A DNA stretch of 64,000 nucleotides, taken from positions 1,887 through 65,886 of the forward strand of contig JACPPM010000078.1 in NCBI GenBank assembly GCA_016191015.1. Direction: 5' to 3'. A program made the translations under genes and the position numbers. The first letter of the stretch is position 1. Each line of letters begins with the position of its first letter. Under the pieces are notes generated by a model. It worked only from the letters and a program-made list of their open reading frames with translations. It was not told the DNA's origin and ran no database searches. This DNA is from Acidobacteriota bacterium (GTDB taxonomy: Bacteria > Acidobacteriota > CAIWXX01). Shown piece after piece: positions 1 through 52,863 of this stretch.

Positions 1-489
1 ATCGTCCACACCTTTGCGCACGTACGAATCCGCTGCCTGAAACCTGGTGATGTCGACTCTGAGCTGCGCGCACGCGTGCGAAGGCGCGATCGCGACGATC
101 TTCGTGTACAGCTCGTAGGCACTTTCCACCCGCCCTTCAGCCTCCATCGCCTGTGCCATCCCTACCAGCGCTGATATGTTCGTGGGGTTGCTTCCGAGCA
201 CGTCCCTGAAAACCGCCATCGCAGCCGGCCGGTCTCCCCGCACAAAGTGGGCATAAGCAAGTCCAAGCCTCGCCGGGGTCCTCCATTCGGGAACCTTCGC
301 CAGCTTCCTGAACCCCTCCTCGCTCCCCGCCACATCGCCCTGCTGCAACCGCCGCCACGCGATCTGGAAATCCCTGACCCCCCCTTTCGATGTCTTCTCA
401 TCCAGGGTTTCGGCGGCCAGCGGATCCTCCATGCACAGGTCGGGCTTGATCAGAGGCCGTCGTGGCGCGCAATCCGTCAGCACGGCCAT
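1..489 (-). CDS. TPR-repeat protein, partial. Start at 489; the C-terminus runs off the window start.
   Basis: Manual reverse-complement translation of 489 down to 1 gives an open frame with no stops: MAVLTDCAPRRP... with TPR-like helices (AYAHFVRGDRPAAMAVFRDVLGSNP..., ALVGMAQAMEAEGRVESAYELYTKIVAIAPS). The N-terminus is hydrophobic and signal-like (LILALAVMAVLTDC). It is missing from the ORF track because it has no in-window stop. Confidence 0.45.
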   Translation of the reverse strand, partial: MAVLTDCAPRRPLIKPDLCMEDPLAAETLDEKTSKGGVRDFQIAWRRLQQGDVAGSEEGFRKLAKVPEWRTPARLGLAYAHFVRGDRPAAMAVFRDVLGSNPTNISALVGMAQAMEAEGRVESAYELYTKIVAIAPSHACAQLRVDITRFQAADSYVRKGVDD

Positions 490-536
490 GACTGCGAGGG
501 CCAGGATCAAGACAGTGCGATAGGGGCGAATCGATC

Positions 537-1673
537 TCAATTCACGACCTCCAACCTGGCTGCTGCTCCACCTCCAGGTCCTTCGAGTCCACTCCGTCCC
601 GCGCTCAGCTCCATCCCGAGCCTCTGCGAAATGGCAGAGAGCAAATCGGCGATGCCCGCTCCAGTCAGCGCGGAGACCCGGACGGAACCGTCCGGGCGGC
701 GGCCCGCGGCCCCGTCCGGCAGCCGATCAACCTTGTTGTAGACCATGATCGTGGACCGTCGAGCAGCTCCCAGCTCCGCCAGCACCGTCTCGACTGCTCT
801 GATGTCACCGTCGAGATCGTCGCTCGTCACATCGCAAACGTGCAGCAGTAGCTGCGCGTTGACGACCTCTTCAAGGGTCGCGCGGAAGGCCGCGACCAGC
901 TCCACCGGCAGCTTCCTGATGAAACCAACCGTGTCGGATAAATAACAGGATTTCCCGTCGGCCAGCCGGACGCGACGGCAGAGCGGGTCGAGGGTCGAAA
1001 ACAGTTTCGCCGACCTGAATGTGGCTGTGTGCGTCAGTTTCTCGAAGAGCGTTGACTTTCCGGCGTTCGTGTACCCGACGAGCGCCACGGTCGAGACCCG
1101 CTGCCGTTCGCGGTGCCGCCGGTGCAGTGAGCGCGTGTTCCTCACACGGTCAATGGCGTCCCCGATCTTGTGGATGCGCTCGCGGATTCGACGGCGATCC
1201 ACCTCGAGCTTCATCTCGCCCGGTCCGCGCGTGCCGATCCCGCCGCCGAGCCTCGAGAGCTCGATCCCCTTGCCGGTCAGACGCGGCAGGAGGTAGTTCA
1301 GCTGGGCAAGCTCGACCTGTAGTTTCCCCTCCTGAGTCCGCGCTCGCTGGGCGAATATATCGAGGATCAACTGCGTCCGGTCGACGACCTTGCATTCGAA
1401 GCGGTCCTGGAGGTTTCGGGTCTGGGCCGGACTGAGCGAATCGTTGACAAGCAGCAGGCTGGCCCCCTCAGCCGCACAAACGTGCGCGATCTCTTCGAGC
1501 TTGCCGCGGCCAAAATAGTACGCCGGGTCGATGCGCTCCCGCTCCTGGATGATCTGCACCGCGGGCGTGGCGCCGGACGTGTTCGCCAGCCCGGCGAGCT
1601 CATCCATCGACAGGATGAAATCCGATCGGCGGACGTTCTTCAGTCGAAGCCCAATCAGGACTGCTCTATACAA
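537..1673 (-). CDS. hflX: GTPase HflX
   Basis: 378 aa. It has the HflX N-terminal domain, G1 motif GYTNAGKST, DTVGF and NKVD GTPase motifs. It sits downstream of hfq in the canonical miaA-hfq-hflX order. Confidence 0.85.
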   Translation of the reverse strand: MYRAVLIGLRLKNVRRSDFILSMDELAGLANTSGATPAVQIIQERERIDPAYYFGRGKLEEIAHVCAAEGASLLLVNDSLSPAQTRNLQDRFECKVVDRTQLILDIFAQRARTQEGKLQVELAQLNYLLPRLTGKGIELSRLGGGIGTRGPGEMKLEVDRRRIRERIHKIGDAIDRVRNTRSLHRRHRERQRVSTVALVGYTNAGKSTLFEKLTHTATFRSAKLFSTLDPLCRRVRLADGKSCYLSDTVGFIRKLPVELVAAFRATLEEVVNAQLLLHVCDVTSDDLDGDIRAVETVLAELGAARRSTIMVYNKVDRLPDGAAGRRPDGSVRVSALTGAGIADLLSAISQRLGMELSAGRSGLEGPGGGAAARLEVVN

Positions 1674-1678
1674 GGTCC

Positions 1679-1948
1679 TCAGCTAACCTCGGTCCTCTCC
1701 GCAGCCGGAGCCGGTTCGAGCTTCTCGCGGTGGGTCACCCCCCGCGGAGTGACGATCGTCGAGATCGCGTGCTTGAAAACGAGCTGATCGGCACCATTCG
1801 CATCCACCAGGACCGAGAACTTGTCGAACCCTCTGATCCGCCCTTGCAGCTTGAACCCATTCAGGAGGTAGACGGTGACCTGGATCTTCTCTTTGCGAAT
1901 CGCGTTAATGAATTCATCCTGAACCCCGGACTGCGGCTCCTTATCCAT
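1679..1948 (-). CDS. hfq: RNA chaperone Hfq
   Basis: 89 aa. Sm-like core: QDEFINAIRKEKIQVTVYLLNGFKLQGRIRGFDKFSVLV... HAISTIV. Confidence 0.85.
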   Translation of the reverse strand: MDKEPQSGVQDEFINAIRKEKIQVTVYLLNGFKLQGRIRGFDKFSVLVDANGADQLVFKHAISTIVTPRGVTHREKLEPAPAAERTEVS

Positions 1949-1973
1949 TCACCTCACCTCAGAGATCAAAGTA

Positions 1974-2915
1974 TTACAAAAGCCAACGCCTGACAAGTGG
2001 GGTCATCCATTCGTTTCGGTCCGGTCGCAGCCAGATCGCGCCCTTCTCACGCCGAAACCAGGTGAGCTGCCGCTTGGCGTACCGCCGCGTCTCCGTCTTG
2101 ATCTCTTCTCGAAGCCCCGCCTCGTCACCCTCACCATCGATCAGTTTCAGCGCTTGCCTGTACCCTAGACCCTTGAATGGCGTGGCATCGCGCGAGACCT
2201 GCCGTGCCAACAGCAGCCTGGCCTCATCCACCAGACCCGCCGCCAGCATCGCGTCCACACGGAGATCGATGCGAGCGTAAAGGTCTCGTCGCGGAAGAAG
2301 CAGGCCGAGCTTGAGCAGGCGGTGGTCGCGCAGCCGCACCGAGCTCCTCTCGAAGTGAATCGAGATCGGCACGCCCGTGGTCTCCCAGACCTCGAGCGCT
2401 CGAATAATCCGCACGGGATCGTTCGGGTGGACACGTGCCTGATAAGCCGGATCCACGTCGCCGAGGCGTCGATAGAGGGCGGCAAGACCATGGGCGGTCG
2501 CATCCGAGCGAAGCCGGGAGCGGATTTCGGGGTTCCGCGGGGGTCCTTCGAAAATACCGTCGAGGAGAGCACGAAGATAGAGCCCCGTCCCGCCCACAAC
2601 GACCGGCAGGCGACCACGATTTTCAATCTCCGGTATGAGATCGAGTGTGCGAGTGACAAAGTCTGCAGCCGAGAAGGTCTCATCCGGATCACAGATATCA
2701 ACCAGATGGTGCCTGATATCGGCTGACTCGCGTCCGTGCTTCGCCGTTCCGATGTCAAAACCCCGGTAGACCTGCATGGAATCGCAGCTGATGATCTCGC
2801 CGTCGAGCGTGCGGCAGAGATCGACGGCGGCGTCGGTCTTCCCGACGGCAGTCGGACCGAGGATGATCACCAGGGGTCTCGCACCGTCCGGAGCCTCCTC
2901 GTGAGGGCGCGGCAT
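1974..2915 (-). CDS. miaA: tRNA dimethylallyltransferase MiaA
   Basis: 313 aa. P-loop GPTAVGKT. The family motifs DSMQVYRGFDIGTAK and QLTWFRRE are present. Confidence 0.85.
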   Translation of the reverse strand: MPRPHEEAPDGARPLVIILGPTAVGKTDAAVDLCRTLDGEIISCDSMQVYRGFDIGTAKHGRESADIRHHLVDICDPDETFSAADFVTRTLDLIPEIENRGRLPVVVGGTGLYLRALLDGIFEGPPRNPEIRSRLRSDATAHGLAALYRRLGDVDPAYQARVHPNDPVRIIRALEVWETTGVPISIHFERSSVRLRDHRLLKLGLLLPRRDLYARIDLRVDAMLAAGLVDEARLLLARQVSRDATPFKGLGYRQALKLIDGEGDEAGLREEIKTETRRYAKRQLTWFRREKGAIWLRPDRNEWMTPLVRRWLL

Positions 2916-3061: not shown

Positions 3062-4183
3062 TCACGGGCTGAGATGGAGCTCCTGAAGGCTCCGGAGCAC
3101 CGAGGACTCGTGCTCGGGCCCGAGGGTCTTCTTGATCGCGAGCAGCTCCGCGTAGAAGAACTCGTTCAGGCCGCCGATCAAGGTCTCCCGCCGGACTTCG
3201 GGCTTGAGTGAGCTCACGTTCTTCTGGAGCATCTCGAGATCGAGCGAGCCGTCTTTGCGAAGCTTTACGTTCTTGAACAGCGCGTCCTGACTCGTGCGGA
3301 TGTCGTTCAGATATTTGTTGAGGACGTTTTCAGCAATGGGACCTATTTCGCGGAGCATGTATTTGTAGAGGAAGCCGTAAGCATCGTTGAATGTCTGGAG
3401 AATGCGCCGAATATCCTGCTGTTCTTCGACGGGGGCAGCCGGCACAGCGTCGCGGCGCTGAGGCGGAGCCTCCTCGCGCTGCCGCCGCCGGACGAAGCCG
3501 ATCGCTTCGAGCGCGTACAGCACCTTGAGGGTTTCGAAGTCACCGATCTCGCTCTTCGAGCAGATTTCCTGGGCGTGCCGATTGCCGTCGACCAGAAACA
3601 AAATGTGCTTCTCGTACGGTTCCAGGTTGATCTTGTCATCCAGTCCGAGGCGGGTCTGGATGAAAACCGCATCGGCGGCCGGGAAGCGGGGGCCGAGCGT
3701 GTCTGGATCCCGGAGCCTGCGGACGCCCTCGAGCGTGAGCTGAGGGACGTCCATGTCGATCACGATGTTTTCATTGGTCCGGAGGTCGCCGTCGGAAAAC
3801 GTGTACGTCCCCCGAGGCCAGGCTAGCAGGGAGTAAAAGATCTCCTTGAGCTGGTGCTGGACGCTCCACCAGAGCTCCTTCGGGCTGAGAGCGCCGATCT
3901 CGACCAGCGCCCTCCCCTGCCTCATCCCCCTCTTGATCAGCTCAGCGCTCTTGTCGTACTGCTCCTTGCTGATCTTGCCTTCTTTCAGGAGAATGTCACC
4001 GAGCCGCTCGTCGAGCAGACTCGAGCTGGCAAAAATCAGATTGCCGGCCTTGAAGTAGAGCCGTTTCTCGGCATCGTCACGCCTGAGGATCAGAACGCCT
4101 GTCTTCTTCTGCGTGCGAAGCGATTCCAAAACAAACGGGAGACCTCGTTCTTCGAGCTTTCCTTCGAGTGGTGTCCCCGTCAT
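3062..4183 (-). CDS. DUF4388 (PATAN-like) domain protein
   Basis: 373 aa. The N-terminal block FVLESLRTQKKTGVLILRRDDAEKRLYFKAGNLIFASSS is typical of DUF4388/PatA-N-type domains. No other recognisable domain. Confidence 0.5.
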   Translation of the reverse strand: MTGTPLEGKLEERGLPFVLESLRTQKKTGVLILRRDDAEKRLYFKAGNLIFASSSLLDERLGDILLKEGKISKEQYDKSAELIKRGMRQGRALVEIGALSPKELWWSVQHQLKEIFYSLLAWPRGTYTFSDGDLRTNENIVIDMDVPQLTLEGVRRLRDPDTLGPRFPAADAVFIQTRLGLDDKINLEPYEKHILFLVDGNRHAQEICSKSEIGDFETLKVLYALEAIGFVRRRQREEAPPQRRDAVPAAPVEEQQDIRRILQTFNDAYGFLYKYMLREIGPIAENVLNKYLNDIRTSQDALFKNVKLRKDGSLDLEMLQKNVSSLKPEVRRETLIGGLNEFFYAELLAIKKTLGPEHESSVLRSLQELHLSP

Positions 4184-4289
4184 TTACGATATCCAGAATT
4201 CAATGGCTAATGTACATCCGCGAAGGTCAGAGTGTCAACGCATCCTCCACCCACACCAGCTATTTCCGACACACAACATATTCTCGTTC

Positions 4290-4545
4290 TCGCTTCCCCT
4301 AACGCGGCGGAGCCGCAACCAAAAAGGTTGCGTCTCCACCGCGCGTGAGAGCGTCCGGCCCGCTTCGCGGGCCTGGAGCGTGGAGAGTGAGAGCGTGCTT
4401 CCGAGCCACCCTGATCGTCCGAGGCGACCGCTCCGTTCCTGCATTCCTCCCTTCCTGCTTTCCTGAGAGGGGTTCGGAGGATCTCACCCACTCGAACGTT
4501 TTGCCATTTCGTGTCAGCACTCAACTTGTAAGACAGTAGCCGTAC
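4290..4545. repeat. Copy 1 of a roughly 245-bp structured direct repeat (about 85% identical to copy 2). It contains a 15-bp-stem hairpin (cggcggagccgcaacc-aaaaa-ggttgcgtctccac) and a GC palindrome (ggcccgcttcgcgggcc). It ends about 105 nt upstream of the 4652 CDS.
   Basis: Direct comparison of 4290-4545 with 5225-5480. Conserved blocks: aacgcggcggagccgcaaccaaaaag, gcgtgagagcgtccggcccgctt, gatcgtccgaggcgaccgctccgttcctgcattcctcc, ttgccatttcgtgtca, caacttgtaagac. Confidence 0.7.
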
Positions 4546-4651
4546 CCGATGGGCTCGCCCTTCCTTCGACAGACATAGAAAAAACTCTTGACAGGTCTAG
4601 GTCTAATGTCTAGGCTAATATCAGCCGAAAACTTAAGCGAGGAGGCGACCA

Positions 4652-5140
4652 ATGAAATTGGGAAGATGGGCTATTGTCGTCGCATTCGGAACTCTGCTTG
4701 TGGCCTCCGGACAGGCCGCGGCTCAGTGCGGGGGTACACCCTGTGAGCTGAGTGTCGTTGCCACTCCAGAGCGGCAGGACGTACTCTATCCGTTCGCCGC
4801 CGTCATCAGGGTGACGGTCACAAACGCCTCGACCGGCGCCCCGGTCGGCGGTGTCCAGGTCAGCCTGCAGGCCGTCTACAGGACCTACCTGTACCCGACC
4901 GACCCCGGCTGTGAGGTCGACCAGAGCGCATCCATCGCAAGATGGAAAAAGACGAGCTCGAAAGGCACAGCTAGTTTTAGCATAAAAACGGGCTTCCAAT
5001 GGATCGGCGCCGACCCGCAGGAGTGCCCCGATATCCACGTCCACATTCGCGCTCGCAAACGAGGGTACGAAGGGGCCGATTGCGAGACCGATGTCGATGT
5101 GGTCGATTGCGAGGCTTGCCATTTCGCCAACCGGAAGTAA
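4652..5140 (+). CDS. Small secreted Cys-rich hypothetical protein
   Basis: 162 aa. Sec signal peptide MKLGRWAIVVAFGTLLVASGQAAA|Q. Seven Cys. A beta-sandwich-like block (VTVTNASTGAPVGGVQVSL). The gene is flanked on both sides by the 245-bp repeat. Confidence 0.55.
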   Translation: MKLGRWAIVVAFGTLLVASGQAAAQCGGTPCELSVVATPERQDVLYPFAAVIRVTVTNASTGAPVGGVQVSLQAVYRTYLYPTDPGCEVDQSASIARWKKTSSKGTASFSIKTGFQWIGADPQECPDIHVHIRARKRGYEGADCETDVDVVDCEACHFANRK

Positions 5141-5224
5141 CGTCCGCCTCGTCTGACTCCTCGCGATAACGGCTCGTTTGCCTGCCTCCGGCCGGTAGGA
5201 CCGACTCAGGGGCGCACCCACGCT

Positions 5225-5480
5225 GGTGCGCCCCAGCCCATCCCCCCAACGCGGCGGAGCCGCAACCAAAAAGTTGCGTCTCCGCCGCGCGTGAGAGCGT
5301 CCGGCCCGCTTCTCGGGCCTGGAGCGTGGAGCGTGAGTGCGTTTTTCTGAGGCACTCTGATCGTCCGAGGCGACCGCTCCGTTCCTGCATTCCTCCCCTC
5401 CTCCTGTCCTGAGAGGAGTTCGGAAAATCTAGCCGCCTCACATTTCTTGCCATTTCGTGTCAACACGCAACTTGTAAGAC
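5225..5480. repeat. Copy 2 of the roughly 245-bp structured direct repeat, about 260 nt upstream of the secA start
   Basis: See copy 1. The ORF-track entries 5206..5466(-) and 4299..4520(-) read through the two copies and share peptide blocks without synonymous-site bias, so they are non-coding. Confidence 0.7.
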
Positions 5481-5599
5481 GCTAATCGGCCAGACCTTAC
5501 CACCCATTGGTCAGATGAAACGAGGCCGACGCCGGGCACTCGCCGATTCCGCAGGTTTTCCGGAGGACGGATCACGGGGCCGTCAATGCTCACGGGTTG

Positions 5600-5690
5600 T
5601 ATCTGTGCAATCTGCGAAATCTGCGGTTTCGTACGGAGGGGACTCGCCATTGGCGGCGCCTGGATCTTGCCGCAATCCTGCCAAGGATTG
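5600..5690. mobile_element. Degenerate fragment of the 212-bp MITE-like element, in the secA leader
   Basis: atctgtgcaatctgcgaaatctgcggtttcgtacgg...ggatcttgccgcaatcctgccaagg resembles the MITE internal and terminal sequence (aatctgtgaaatctgcggtttccgggactttgccgtag). It produces the spurious N-terminus [11 protein letters not shown] of ORF 5597. Confidence 0.4.
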
Positions 5691-5740
5691 TCGGTCTTCT
5701 TGACGGGCCTTCGACCCGTCTGATAGATTTTCGGCTCCTC

Positions 5741-8419
<2,679 letters not shown>

Positions 8420-21794: not shown

Positions 21795-21901
21795 AAGACG
21801 CCCCCTTTGAAGAATGCGGAAAGTAGGACACCGAAGAAGCACAGTAGTCTCAGCGTAGCACACGGCTTCTGAGGGCGGCAAACCCCAACGCGGCTTCGCC
21901 C

Positions 21902-22112
21902 AAGGCTACGGCAAAGTCCCGGAACCCGCAGATTTCACAGATTGACTCGCAGATGTCGCCGATTGCTTCGCGCCGACCCGAGAGTGAGGAGCAAGTTGCT
22001 CGTCGGTTGAATGCTGGAAGAATCTGCGTAATCTGCGCGGAAATCCGTGCCATCTGCGGTTTCGCACGGAACGGCCTCGCCCGAGTCGGCGCCTCGACTT
22101 TGCCGCAGCCCC
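21902..22112. mobile_element. MITE-like 212-bp element, copy A, in the divergent promoter region between the A2M gene and the histidine phosphatase gene
   Basis: Termini aaggctacggcaaagtc ... gactttgccgcagcccc. Internal (c)gcagat-type motifs. A long imperfect palindrome. It generates the spurious ORFs 21953..22159(+), 21906..22322(-) and the start of 21850..22575(-). Confidence 0.7.
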
Positions 22113-22194
22113 GGCTCCCGGGGGGTTGGTTTGAAGCGGCGCGGCTGTTTCTGTTATAAAGTACGATTCGATCGGCGTATGAGGGCGAGGATGT

Positions 22195-39670: not shown

Positions 39671-39904
39671 CTGGTTGTCGCAAGACTACGGCAAAGTCCC
39701 GGAAACCGCAGATTTCACAGATTGACTCGCAGATGTCGCCGACTGCTTCGCGCCGACCCGAGAGTGAGGAGCAGGTTGCTCGTCGGCTGAATGCTGGAAG
39801 AATCTGCGTAATCTGCGCAGAAATCTGCGCCATCTGCGGTTTCGCGCGGAACGGCCTCGCCCGAGTCGGCGCCCCGACTTTGCCGCAGCCCTGCTGGTTG
39901 TCGC
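39671..39904. mobile_element. MITE-like 212-bp element, copy B (39682..39893), with its 11-bp target-site duplication ctggttgtcgc at both ends
   Basis: Termini aagactacggcaaagtc ... gactttgccgcagccctg. The direct repeat ctggttgtcgc sits at 39671-39681 and 39894-39904. It lies in the divergent promoter region between the transglutaminase-like gene and the GH57 gene. The spurious ORFs 39570..39833(-), 39686..39922(-) and the 5' part of 39310..40140(+) lie on it. Confidence 0.8.
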
Positions 39905-41548: not shown

Positions 41549-42280
41549 CTACCTGCCGGCTTCGACGCGCCTGACCACTCCCATTCCGATCTGCGTCTTT
41601 TGCCCGGCCGAAGCGAAGAAGGCGTAGTCCGCGAGAACATTGAGCTCGTGCAAAATGTCCCGTTGGACGCTGCCCGAGGCCTTGAATGCCACCGTCCCGG
41701 TGAATCCGATTCTGGTGCTACGGTCTTCCTTGAAAGACGTAGTCTCGATCTTCAGGGAGGAGATCGCAAGATGATGATCAGCGGCGTCGACCACTTCTTC
41801 GTGGAGCGCGAACCGCGTGTGCACGTGTTTCCAACGCCGGTAGAGACTGTTGTAGAGCTGGCGCGAGAGTGGGAGCGGAACGTCAAGATCGCCGTGGTGG
41901 AACGATGTCGGCGTGAGAAACTCGAAACAGAATTCCTTGGCCGTCGCGGAGGCTCTGCGGAAGATCTCCTCGTAAGATCTTCTCCCGGCCAACGGATGGG
42001 CTTCGACCGGCCTCAGCAGCATTTCGTGACCATCAATCGGAATCCGCGCCTCGCCAAGCCCGTTGAGGGCCGTCCCTGACCTCTCGTCGATCGTGGCAAT
42101 TCGGATCGCGGGTTCGCCGCTTGCCGCCGCAACCGGAGCGACCGAGAAGGTAAGCAATTCCTGCTCGAGCAAATCCTCACTCACCAGAAGGCCGACTACC
42201 GCCCGGAGGATCCGGGAGGCGTCGGGAGCAGAACCGCCCTTCGGCTCGGACGGCAGTGCAAAAACTACTGCTGCTGGCAT
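41549..42280 (-). CDS. Cas6-like RAMP-fold protein, standalone (no CRISPR array or other cas genes in the window)
   Basis: 243 aa. The C-terminal glycine-rich loop FASAGQKTQIGMGVV aligns to the Cas6 G-loop consensus G(F)GR(H)TSLG(Y)G(M)V. An LTPTSF strand is also present. Assignment rests on motif recognition only. Confidence 0.35.
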   Translation of the reverse strand: MPAAVVFALPSEPKGGSAPDASRILRAVVGLLVSEDLLEQELLTFSVAPVAAASGEPAIRIATIDERSGTALNGLGEARIPIDGHEMLLRPVEAHPLAGRRSYEEIFRRASATAKEFCFEFLTPTSFHHGDLDVPLPLSRQLYNSLYRRWKHVHTRFALHEEVVDAADHHLAISSLKIETTSFKEDRSTRIGFTGTVAFKASGSVQRDILHELNVLADYAFFASAGQKTQIGMGVVRRVEAGR

Positions 42281-44096: not shown

Positions 44097-44169
44097 GCAG
44101 TTACTCCTAGATGTTGCGGCGATTCTAGCATACGGCTCACACCCCAACAAGACAGGTATGGGTGCCTCC

Positions 44170-44362
44170 CAGGTCTGCGGCAAAGTCGAGGCGCCGACTC
44201 GGGCGAGGCCGTTCCGTGCGAACCCGCAGATGGCGCCGATCTCCGCGCAGGTTCCGCGGATCCTTCCAGCATCCACCCGACGCGAAACATCCTACTCACT
44301 CTCGGATCGACGCTTTGCGATCGGCGACATCTGCGAGTGAACCTGCGGCGTCGCAGAGCTTG
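44170..44362. mobile_element. MITE-like element, copy C (opposite orientation, 3' end diverged or truncated)
   Basis: The 5' terminus caggtctgcggcaaagtcgaggcgccgactcgggcgaggccgttccgtgcgaa is nearly identical to copy D. The distal end is degraded. It lies in the divergent promoter region between the DnaJ/PATAN gene and the wHTH regulator. Confidence 0.55.
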
Positions 44363-52629: not shown

Positions 52630-52863
52630 GGCCATCTTCGCAGGGCTGCGGCAAAGTCGAGGCGCCGACTCGGGCGAGGCCGTTCCGTGCGAAACCGCAG
52701 ATGGCGCAGATTTCCGCGCAGATTACGCAGATTTTACCAGCATTCAACCGACGAGCAACTTGCTCCTCACTCTCGGGTCGGCGCGAAGCAATCGGCGATA
52801 TCTGCGAGTCAATCTGTGAAATCTGCGGTTTCCGGGACTTTGCCGTAGTCTTGGCCATCTTCG
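52630..52863. mobile_element. MITE-like 212-bp element, copy D (52641..52852), flanked by its 11-bp target-site duplication ggccatcttcg
   Basis: Termini cagggctgcggcaaagtc ... gactttgccgtagtctt. The direct repeat ggccatcttcg sits at 52630-52640 and 52853-52863. Inverted relative to copy B. The spurious ORFs 52610..52900(-) and the 3' part of 52326..52916(+) lie on it. Confidence 0.8.

Follow-up and report, generated by a model that had tools for sequence, protein, structure and literature searches.

The window analysed here is a 64-kb stretch of DNA, 61.8% G+C, from a bacterium of the Acidobacteriota. Near its left end two genes point away from each other—a DUF4388/PatA_N gene on the minus strand (3062–4183) and a small orphan gene on the plus strand (4652–5140)—and the second of these is followed, in the same direction, by secA (5741–8419), which starts with the ATG at 5741. 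The gene for IMPDH comes next after secA, and miaA, together with hfq-side and hflX-like genes, lies to the left. The orphan gene encodes a protein of 162 aa that carries a signal peptide and has eight cysteines. The protein matches no Pfam family, exact look-ups of it and of the window's SecA returned no record, and among 5.8 billion proteins it has only two relatives, 97% identical (locus L005) and 90% identical (locus L004). Flanking this gene, and not including it, are two plus-strand copies of a non-coding dispersed repeat that we call F1. Copy A (4298–4539, 242 nt) is in the spacer from which the DUF4388 and 162-aa genes diverge, and copy B (5245–5485, 241 nt) lies between the terminator-like hairpin of the 162-aa gene and an older remnant, upstream of secA, that resembles a second repeat family, F2.

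The two copies are direct repeats spaced 946–947 bp apart. Aligned with MAFFT, they are 87.5–88% identical over 241 columns, with a single 1-nt indel at 4326; a repeat search of the window reports them in two segments, 4322–4534/5268–5480 (213 nt, 87%) and 4296–4326/5243–5273 (97%). There is no third copy within the 64-kb window. The boundaries used here were set from an alignment of six copies, and the termini are accurate to about 5 nt. The original prediction had placed direct repeats of about 85% identity at 4290–4545 and 5225–5480; the pair is real, at 88%, and is slightly narrower than was thought, with copy B ending 5 nt later. The prediction also held that the reading frames across the copies diverge without synonymous bias, and so they do: the 30 differences between A and B split 14/8/8 across the three codon phases, and the conservation of F1 is thus not at the level of protein. 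ORFs that span F1 match no Pfam family, and the six copies differ by indels of 1, 20, 25 and 26 nt. One minus-strand ORF that stays open in several copies was considered as a coding sequence and set aside, for it lacks phase bias, is frameshifted by indels, ends in differing C-termini and has no Pfam match. A DGR template/variable repeat pair was considered, too, and rejected because the substitutions between A and B are not adenine-specific.

Each copy opens with a hairpin. In copy A this occupies 4303–4343, directly after the left boundary CC-TAA, and has an imperfect stem of 17–18 bp, including an A.C mismatch, closed by an A5 loop; in copy B it occupies 5250–5289, and its arms are 94% complementary. 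Folded as DNA, the hairpin has an energy of −18.6 kcal/mol in A (z = −5.2) and −21.5 kcal/mol in B (z = −7.1), and in neither case was any of 200 shuffled sequences as stable, which bears out the strong A5-loop hairpin seen at the outset. The GC palindrome ggcccgcttcgcgggcc follows. It was described as perfect, and it is so in copy A (4357–4373), but in copy B (5303–5319) it contains one mismatch. Conservation in F1 is highest in a core, about 190 nt long, that includes an inverted repeat and a set of tandem 8-mers. In copy A, the conserved core spans 4397–4481, and its 10-nt inverted-repeat arms (4397–4406 and 4472–4481) bracket approximately four 8-mers of the form CnTTCCTG (4431–4465; period 8, 3.8–4.2 copies) that read AGGAA, four times over, on the minus strand. 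The arms constitute helix 5 of the consensus fold and display one compensatory change. The right-end block, 4501–4539 in copy A, reads TTGCCATTTCGTGTCA...CAACTTnnnAGACAGTAG, for which the family consensus is ...AGACACTAA. Copies A and B both contain, in identical form, the two blocks originally singled out as conserved at the ends, ttgccatttcgtgtca and caacttgtaagac. A sigma-54 or sigma-70 promoter in the right-end block was considered and dropped, since neither inspection by eye nor a scan gave an acceptable match.

Six copies of F1 were recovered altogether: A, B, and four elsewhere. One, L008, comes from a back-translated scan of JGI metagenomes (Ga0209341), and is situated downstream of a gene. 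The other three, L009, L010 and L011, were reached by way of the spurious minus-strand ORF, an HMMER profile of which picked out three short ORFs among 1.84 billion representative proteins. All three are full copies at unrelated intergenic loci in a single assembly, GCA_040960765.1, which is also the assembly of L004, whose secA locus has no F1. L009 adjoins an HlyIII gene, and is antisense to both of its neighbours; L010 lies downstream of a response-regulator gene; L011 has a hypothetical gene on either side. This dispersal at unrelated intergenic loci brings F1 closest to the REP-like, or structured intergenic repeat, that the original prediction had listed as one of its options. Searches of plasmid and phage collections with blastn gave no match, DNA and translated scans of viral contigs did not find F1, and an exact 20-mer taken from the longest invariant block met only two chance matches, in Rubellimicrobium and Nonomuraea, among the contigs of GTDB representatives. 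When F1 was concatenated as a six-frame pseudo-protein and used as a homologue query, none of 8000 candidates was significant. The L008 copy begins 47 nt past the end of an ISAzo13-type IS, and we considered whether F1 might derive from that element; the IS has terminal inverted repeats of its own (GGGGCCGCGCAAKAACAA) and a TAA duplication, and it ends before F1 begins, so this was rejected.

The left and right ends of the copies are not alike. On the left, all six read CC-YAA-CGCGGCGGAGCC (also CC-YAA-CGCGGCGG), with CC-YAA preceding CGCGG. On the right, the copies read ...TTGCCATTTCGTGTCA-RCAC-N-CAACTT-NNN-AGAC-RC-TAA, with the final CTAA, or a variant of it, present in five. The six-copy alignment reveals no terminal inverted repeats (TIRs)—the left CC-YAA-CGCGGCGGAGCC and the right ...CAACTTnnnAGACACTAA are not complementary—and no target-site duplications (TSDs), the flanks of the six copies being unrelated beyond the invariant CC-YAA and CTAA. 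Both hairpins are modules that the element can do without, and some copies have them in shortened form or not at all. In L008, hairpin 1 is missing its inner 26 nt and retains a stem of 6 bp, and there is no GC palindrome; the palindrome region is missing from L010 as well; and L009 possesses an additional hairpin of 25 nt.

Pairwise identities among the six copies range from 82% to 90%, and within this range A and B do not form the closest pair: they are 88.0% identical to one another, versus 89.7% for A and L009, and 89.2% for B and L009. Star-like divergence of this kind argues for what would be separate insertions, from sources that had already diverged, rather than for duplication in situ. 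The divergence between A and B (12%) is about the same as that between the intergenic DNA of the window and L005 (~10%), a point against this reading in that it requires the source copies to have diverged beforehand.

Comparison with relatives is informative about the order of events. L004 (GCA_040960765.1) and L005 (Logan SRR22388342) have the same arrangement as the window—DUF4388 on one side, pointing left, then the 162-aa gene and secA, pointing right—and have no F1 at either site, and the sequence that flanks both empty sites aligns well with that of the window. The 162-aa gene was present, then, before the repeats arrived. A more distant relative (L006/L007; DUF4388 81% identical) has neither the 162-aa gene nor F1, and its DUF4388–secA spacer is 592 bp in length; that of the window is 1557 bp. 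On the tree ((window, L005), L004), parsimony calls for two insertions versus four precise deletions. Deletion from the relatives, instead of insertion in the lineage of the window, would be the costlier course. The empty sites are not clean junctions of flank to flank: an additional GCAACTAG is present at site B of L004, while site A falls in a variable, C-rich run. The termini of F1 are for this reason uncertain by about 5 nt, and loss from the relatives, though less likely, keeps some probability.

The same comparison bears on the suggestion, made in the original prediction, that A and B are the two ends of a small mobile cassette that carries the 162-aa protein. It is easy to see why a cassette, a composite transposon or a local segmental duplication should come to mind: the copies are in direct orientation, they bracket exactly one small orphan gene, and the spacer of the window is longer, by roughly one period of the repeat, than that of the relative without the gene. 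But the 162-aa gene occupies the same place in L004 and L005 with neither copy beside it, so the stretch between the repeats, which comparison of the regions upstream of secA might have exposed as an insert, was not brought in by F1. The sequences between the copies and outside them are not duplicated, moreover, and the pattern of identities among the six copies does not pair A with B. Import or duplication of the gene along with the repeats is, we think, the least probable of the explanations considered, and highly improbable in absolute terms.

A second suggestion was that each copy occupies the 5′ leader of a gene, as a cis-regulatory leader RNA or as a promoter module that was duplicated when a gene was inserted with it. 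The predicted promoters lie elsewhere. That of secA, a sigma-70-like match found by promoter scan (TTGACG-18-TAGATT, 5700–5729, plus strand), is separated by 215 nt from copy B, on its upstream side, and by 12 nt from the ATG that follows, and it is kept in L004, L005, L006 and L007. That of the 162-aa gene probably falls within the promoter-proximal block and 5′ UTR at 4583–4651 (plus strand; TTGACA at 4588, GGAGG at 4641), which is downstream of copy A and 100% identical in the window, L004 and L005. The promoter-like site of the DUF4388 gene (4238–4209) is outside copy A, and no sigma-70-like promoter or terminator was called within either copy. Thus, as judged from these predictions, the F1 copies are likely to be upstream of transcription units rather than within them.

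F1 could nevertheless be transcribed on its own account, as a small RNA gene, or function as a cis-regulatory RNA of some other kind: a leader for secA or for the 162-aa gene, for example, or a GGA-rich sRNA, encoded by the minus strand, that titrates a protein. Single-sequence folds of F1 are more stable than shuffled controls (z = −3.5 and −5.4), the stretch that is conserved best reads, on the minus strand, as four CAGGAA-like motifs in tandem, and copies A and B are co-oriented with the genes downstream of them. Against this, neither an RNA family nor covariation was found. Rfam 15 returned nothing for the entire window at gathering thresholds, and for 4150–5750 at E ≤ 10 the matches, among them models of eukaryotic lncRNAs and miRNAs, were no more than noise. 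The covariation term of RNAalifold is penalizing on both strands (+3.73 and +3.93), there is but a single compensatory pair, pairing is the same in the alignment (93.9%) as in shuffled controls (93.9%; 273/500), and the covariation score was matched by 163 of 500 shuffles, all in tests of low power, based on only six sequences. Several of the substitutions among the copies break the hairpins. Close relatives have the same leaders with no F1 in them, L009 runs antisense to the genes on both sides, and L010 and L008 are each situated downstream of a gene. The lack of covariation, for what tests of such low power are worth, together with the non-orthologous locations and the mixed orientations with respect to neighbours, makes a regulatory leader very unlikely, and we regard an RNA function of any of these kinds as a slim prospect. 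Since both sites are F1-less in relatives, and since A and B are not closest kin, the idea of a promoter module duplicated with its gene falls as well. Of the three options in the original prediction, then, the dispersed repeat survives, and the leader RNA and the cassette ends do not.

Two insertions in the same orientation less than 1 kb apart are unusual for a low-copy element. The DUF4388–secA spacer has received other DNA, too. At site A, upstream of DUF4388, the window has F1; L004 has a different, palindromic insert of about 190 bp, flanked by direct repeats of ACACACAT; and L012, whose DUF4388 is 99% identical, has an F2 element. Three different elements in three strains mark this spacer as a hot spot for insertion. 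A further sign of traffic is the diverged, F2-like remnant at 5595–5685, between copy B and the secA promoter, which the window has in common with L004 and L005. The presence of two F1 insertions within 1 kb is best explained, in our opinion, by a spacer that is permissive and repeatedly targeted, with the possible addition of some local hopping.

F2 itself serves as a useful yardstick. Four members are present in the window (21900–22114, 39681–39894, 44167–44345 and 52638–52854), and they are textbook MITEs, with TIRs of approximately 19 bp (CARGRCTRCGGCAAAGTC) and 9-bp TSDs (TGGTTGTCG and GAAGATGGC). Classical features of this sort are readily visible in the same window, and so can be detected when they are present; F1 is without them. 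The two families appear to be unrelated, having only short strings, at the level of chance, in common.

Our reading, to which we attach a probability of roughly 0.7, is that F1 is a low-copy, non-autonomous mobile repeat, some 200–270 nt long and non-coding, that belongs to a narrow, uncultured lineage of Acidobacteriota, and that copies A and B are independent insertions of it. The two would have inserted separately, in intergenic DNA that is permissive for insertion, to the left and to the right of an orphan gene that was there already, and both would have entered the lineage of the window once this had separated from the closest relatives sampled. The enzyme that moves F1 would be encoded elsewhere, and would act in trans. 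We found neither an autonomous parent of F1 nor a transposase associated with ends that match, and no transposase is encoded in the 64-kb window. Elements without TIRs or TSDs belong to the IS200/IS605, IS91 or IS110 kinds. Because F1 has no inverted ends and no duplication of its flanks, and because the CC-YAA on its left resembles its own 3′ end, CACTAA, mobilization was most likely of a single-strand or site-directed type, for which the ‘peel and paste’ of IS200/IS605-like elements might be the nearest model, rather than DDE cut-and-paste. By analogy, then, IS200/IS605-like mobilization is the leading, but unproven, candidate mechanism.

If this reading is right, F1 is a new repeat family—with a consensus, defined ends and dispensable modules—for an acidobacterial lineage that is poorly sampled. 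It also calls for a correction: neither regulation of secA, nor mobility of the orphan secreted protein, should be deduced from the presence of F1, and if the repeats influence secA or the 162-aa gene at all, they would do so incidentally. F1 is also an element, with neither TIRs nor TSDs, whose mobilizing enzyme could be sought. A bolder proposal, which we consider doubtful, is that F1 represents an undescribed class of non-autonomous element without inverted ends, either an acidobacterial, PATE-like one that still encodes a guide-RNA scaffold for a TnpB/IscB-type nuclease to use in trans, or else one moved by some unrecognized mechanism that reads CC-YAA and CACTAA.

How does F1 compare with known systems? 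It shares with REP/BIME, ERIC, BOX and Correia sequences an intergenic location, the ability to form hairpins, and a modular organization in which modules vary from copy to copy. REPs, though, are 20–40 nt in length, usually high in copy number, and tagged with GTAG or CGTC (PMC3733652), and go with a RAYT partner, whereas F1 is about 240 nt, is low in copy number (two in 64 kb), is mostly non-palindromic over its conserved length, and has a hairpin with neither tag. With leader RNAs and riboswitches it has in common a position upstream of genes and a stable fold in silico; it differs in being missing upstream of secA in L004–L007, and in L004 and L005 ahead of the 162-aa gene too, and in that it goes with no particular class of gene, shows no covariation and belongs to no Rfam family. 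Integron attC sites are repeats that travel with a gene, and have core sites of the form RYYYAAC...GTTRRRY. The YYYAAC at the left of F1 fits R″ loosely, no conserved GTTRRRY is found at its right end, and the 162-aa gene, unlike a cassette gene, occurs without F1 in L004 and L005. MITEs are a better match—like them, F1 is a short (about 240 nt), AT-poor, non-coding sequence, dispersed in multiple intergenic copies, that shows insertion polymorphism and has no transposase of its own—apart from the TIRs and TSDs, which F1 lacks and F2, in the same window, has.

There remain the PATEs. F1 might be a non-autonomous, IS200/IS605-type PATE, perhaps with an omega-RNA-like scaffold (omega-RNAs are said to be often encoded by PATEs), that inserts 3′ of a CYAA-type motif under the action of a Y1 TnpA supplied in trans. 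We consider this identification unlikely as it stands. F1 has no convincing hairpin at its right end, where helix 9 is only 5 bp and is broken in five of the six copies. Its left hairpin is terminal rather than subterminal, so close to the boundary that there is no space for a guide tetranucleotide 5′ of the foot, and it is dispensable, being cut to 6 bp in L008. F1 matches no Rfam family even at E ≤ 10, tnpA and tnpB were not found in the window, and the empty sites of L004 and L005 have no clean TAA junction. There are resemblances, all the same. In IS200/IS605 elements the left flank has a transposon-adjacent motif, and the right terminus a transposon-encoded one (PMC10055086), and in F1 the CC-YAA outside the left end, present in six of six copies, resembles the last bases, CACTAA, of the right end, where a CTAA-type sequence is present in five of six. 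A described PATE of 271 nt has a 28-nt left end with a hairpin and a 160-nt right end (PMC7290912), and F1 likewise combines a short, hairpin-bearing left portion with a conserved right portion of about 190 nt. Like PATEs, F1 lacks TIRs and TSDs, is asymmetric at its ends, has a hairpin on the left and is comparable in size, and its short motifs just outside the left end and at the right terminus may correspond to each other as theirs do (PMC7290912, PMC10055086).

The second repeat family of the window, F2, is a classical MITE, dispersed and unrelated to F1, the ~240-nt non-coding repeat whose two copies lie on either side of the 162-aa gene near secA. F2 copies of ~215 nt, 85–97% identical to one another, occur at 21900–22114 and 39681–39894 on the plus strand, and at 44167–44345 and 52638–52854 on the minus strand, for the most part in divergent promoter spacers. 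They end in ~19-bp TIRs (CARGRCTRCGGCAAAGTC), enclose ATCTGCG-rich inverted repeats, and have target duplications of 9 bp, which read TGGTTGTCG for the copy at 39681 and GAAGATGGC for the one at 52638. F2 has no match in Rfam. Directly to the left of the first copy, 12 nt (21884–21895) are identical to the left end of F1 (CCCCAACGCGGC), with no more F1 similarity on either side. This is probably a chance match, because 6 occurrences of the 12-mer with no more than one mismatch were observed versus 2.7 expected. Elsewhere in the window, a solitary Cas6-like ORF (PF10040, E = 3e-14) occupies 41552–42280 of the minus strand; no further cas genes were found among the window ORFs scanned.

F1 copy B is separated from the secA promoter by a diverged, F2-like remnant (5595–5685, alignable from ~5515; nhmmer E = 5e-12). 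This remnant is kept in two relatives that lack F1 at both sites, L004 (NCBI GCA_040960765.1) and L005 (Logan SRR22388342), and therefore predates the F1 insertions. The block that follows it, 5700–5741, is conserved in every relative examined, and contains a promoter match, TTGACG-18-TAGATT with a TG, that ends 12 nt 5' of the secA ATG. With the promoter match this close, and no obvious Shine-Dalgarno sequence within 5700–5741, the predicted secA mRNA is suggested to be leaderless, or nearly so.

The spacer upstream of the DUF4388 gene, the left neighbor, is an insertion hot spot. In L004 it contains a different palindromic insert of ~190 bp (~330–560), with GTAGACG-rich arms and ACACACAT direct repeats on both sides. 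In L012 (Logan SRR22388139), whose DUF4388 protein is 99% identical, an F2 copy (positions 1–60) is found in place of the L004-type insert. Another Logan contig, L001 (SRR12113390), encodes an identical DUF4388 protein; its positions 1–33 correspond to window 4293–4325, and it ends within the loop of hairpin 1, the 5' hairpin of F1 copy A, as expected if assembly graphs stop at this repeat or palindrome.

Beside the F1 copy in the JGI contig L008, 47 nt from it, is an ISAzo13-type IS (254–2170, minus strand; PF07592 DDE domain, E = 3e-109) with an overlapping upstream ORF of 262 aa, TIRs GGGGCCGCGCAATAACAA and GGGGCCGCGCAAGAACAA, and an apparent target duplication, TAA. Compared with F1, the ends of this IS gave no match.

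The 162-aa gene (4652–5140) encodes a secreted, 8-Cys protein that matches no Pfam family and has only two homologues among 5.8 billion proteins (97% and 90%). It is an orphan restricted to this lineage; the relative with 81% DUF4388 identity does not have the gene. Within its conserved promoter block is a 13-nt tandem duplication (GTCTAGGCTAAT twice; 4595–4619), the same in L004 and L005. AlphaFold, given an alignment of 3 sequences, models the protein with moderate confidence (pLDDT 62.5, pTM 0.62) as an all-beta sandwich, and the top PDB match, a weak one, is macroglobulin domain 4 of complement C5 (6rpt; E = 1e-3, TM 0.48–0.65).
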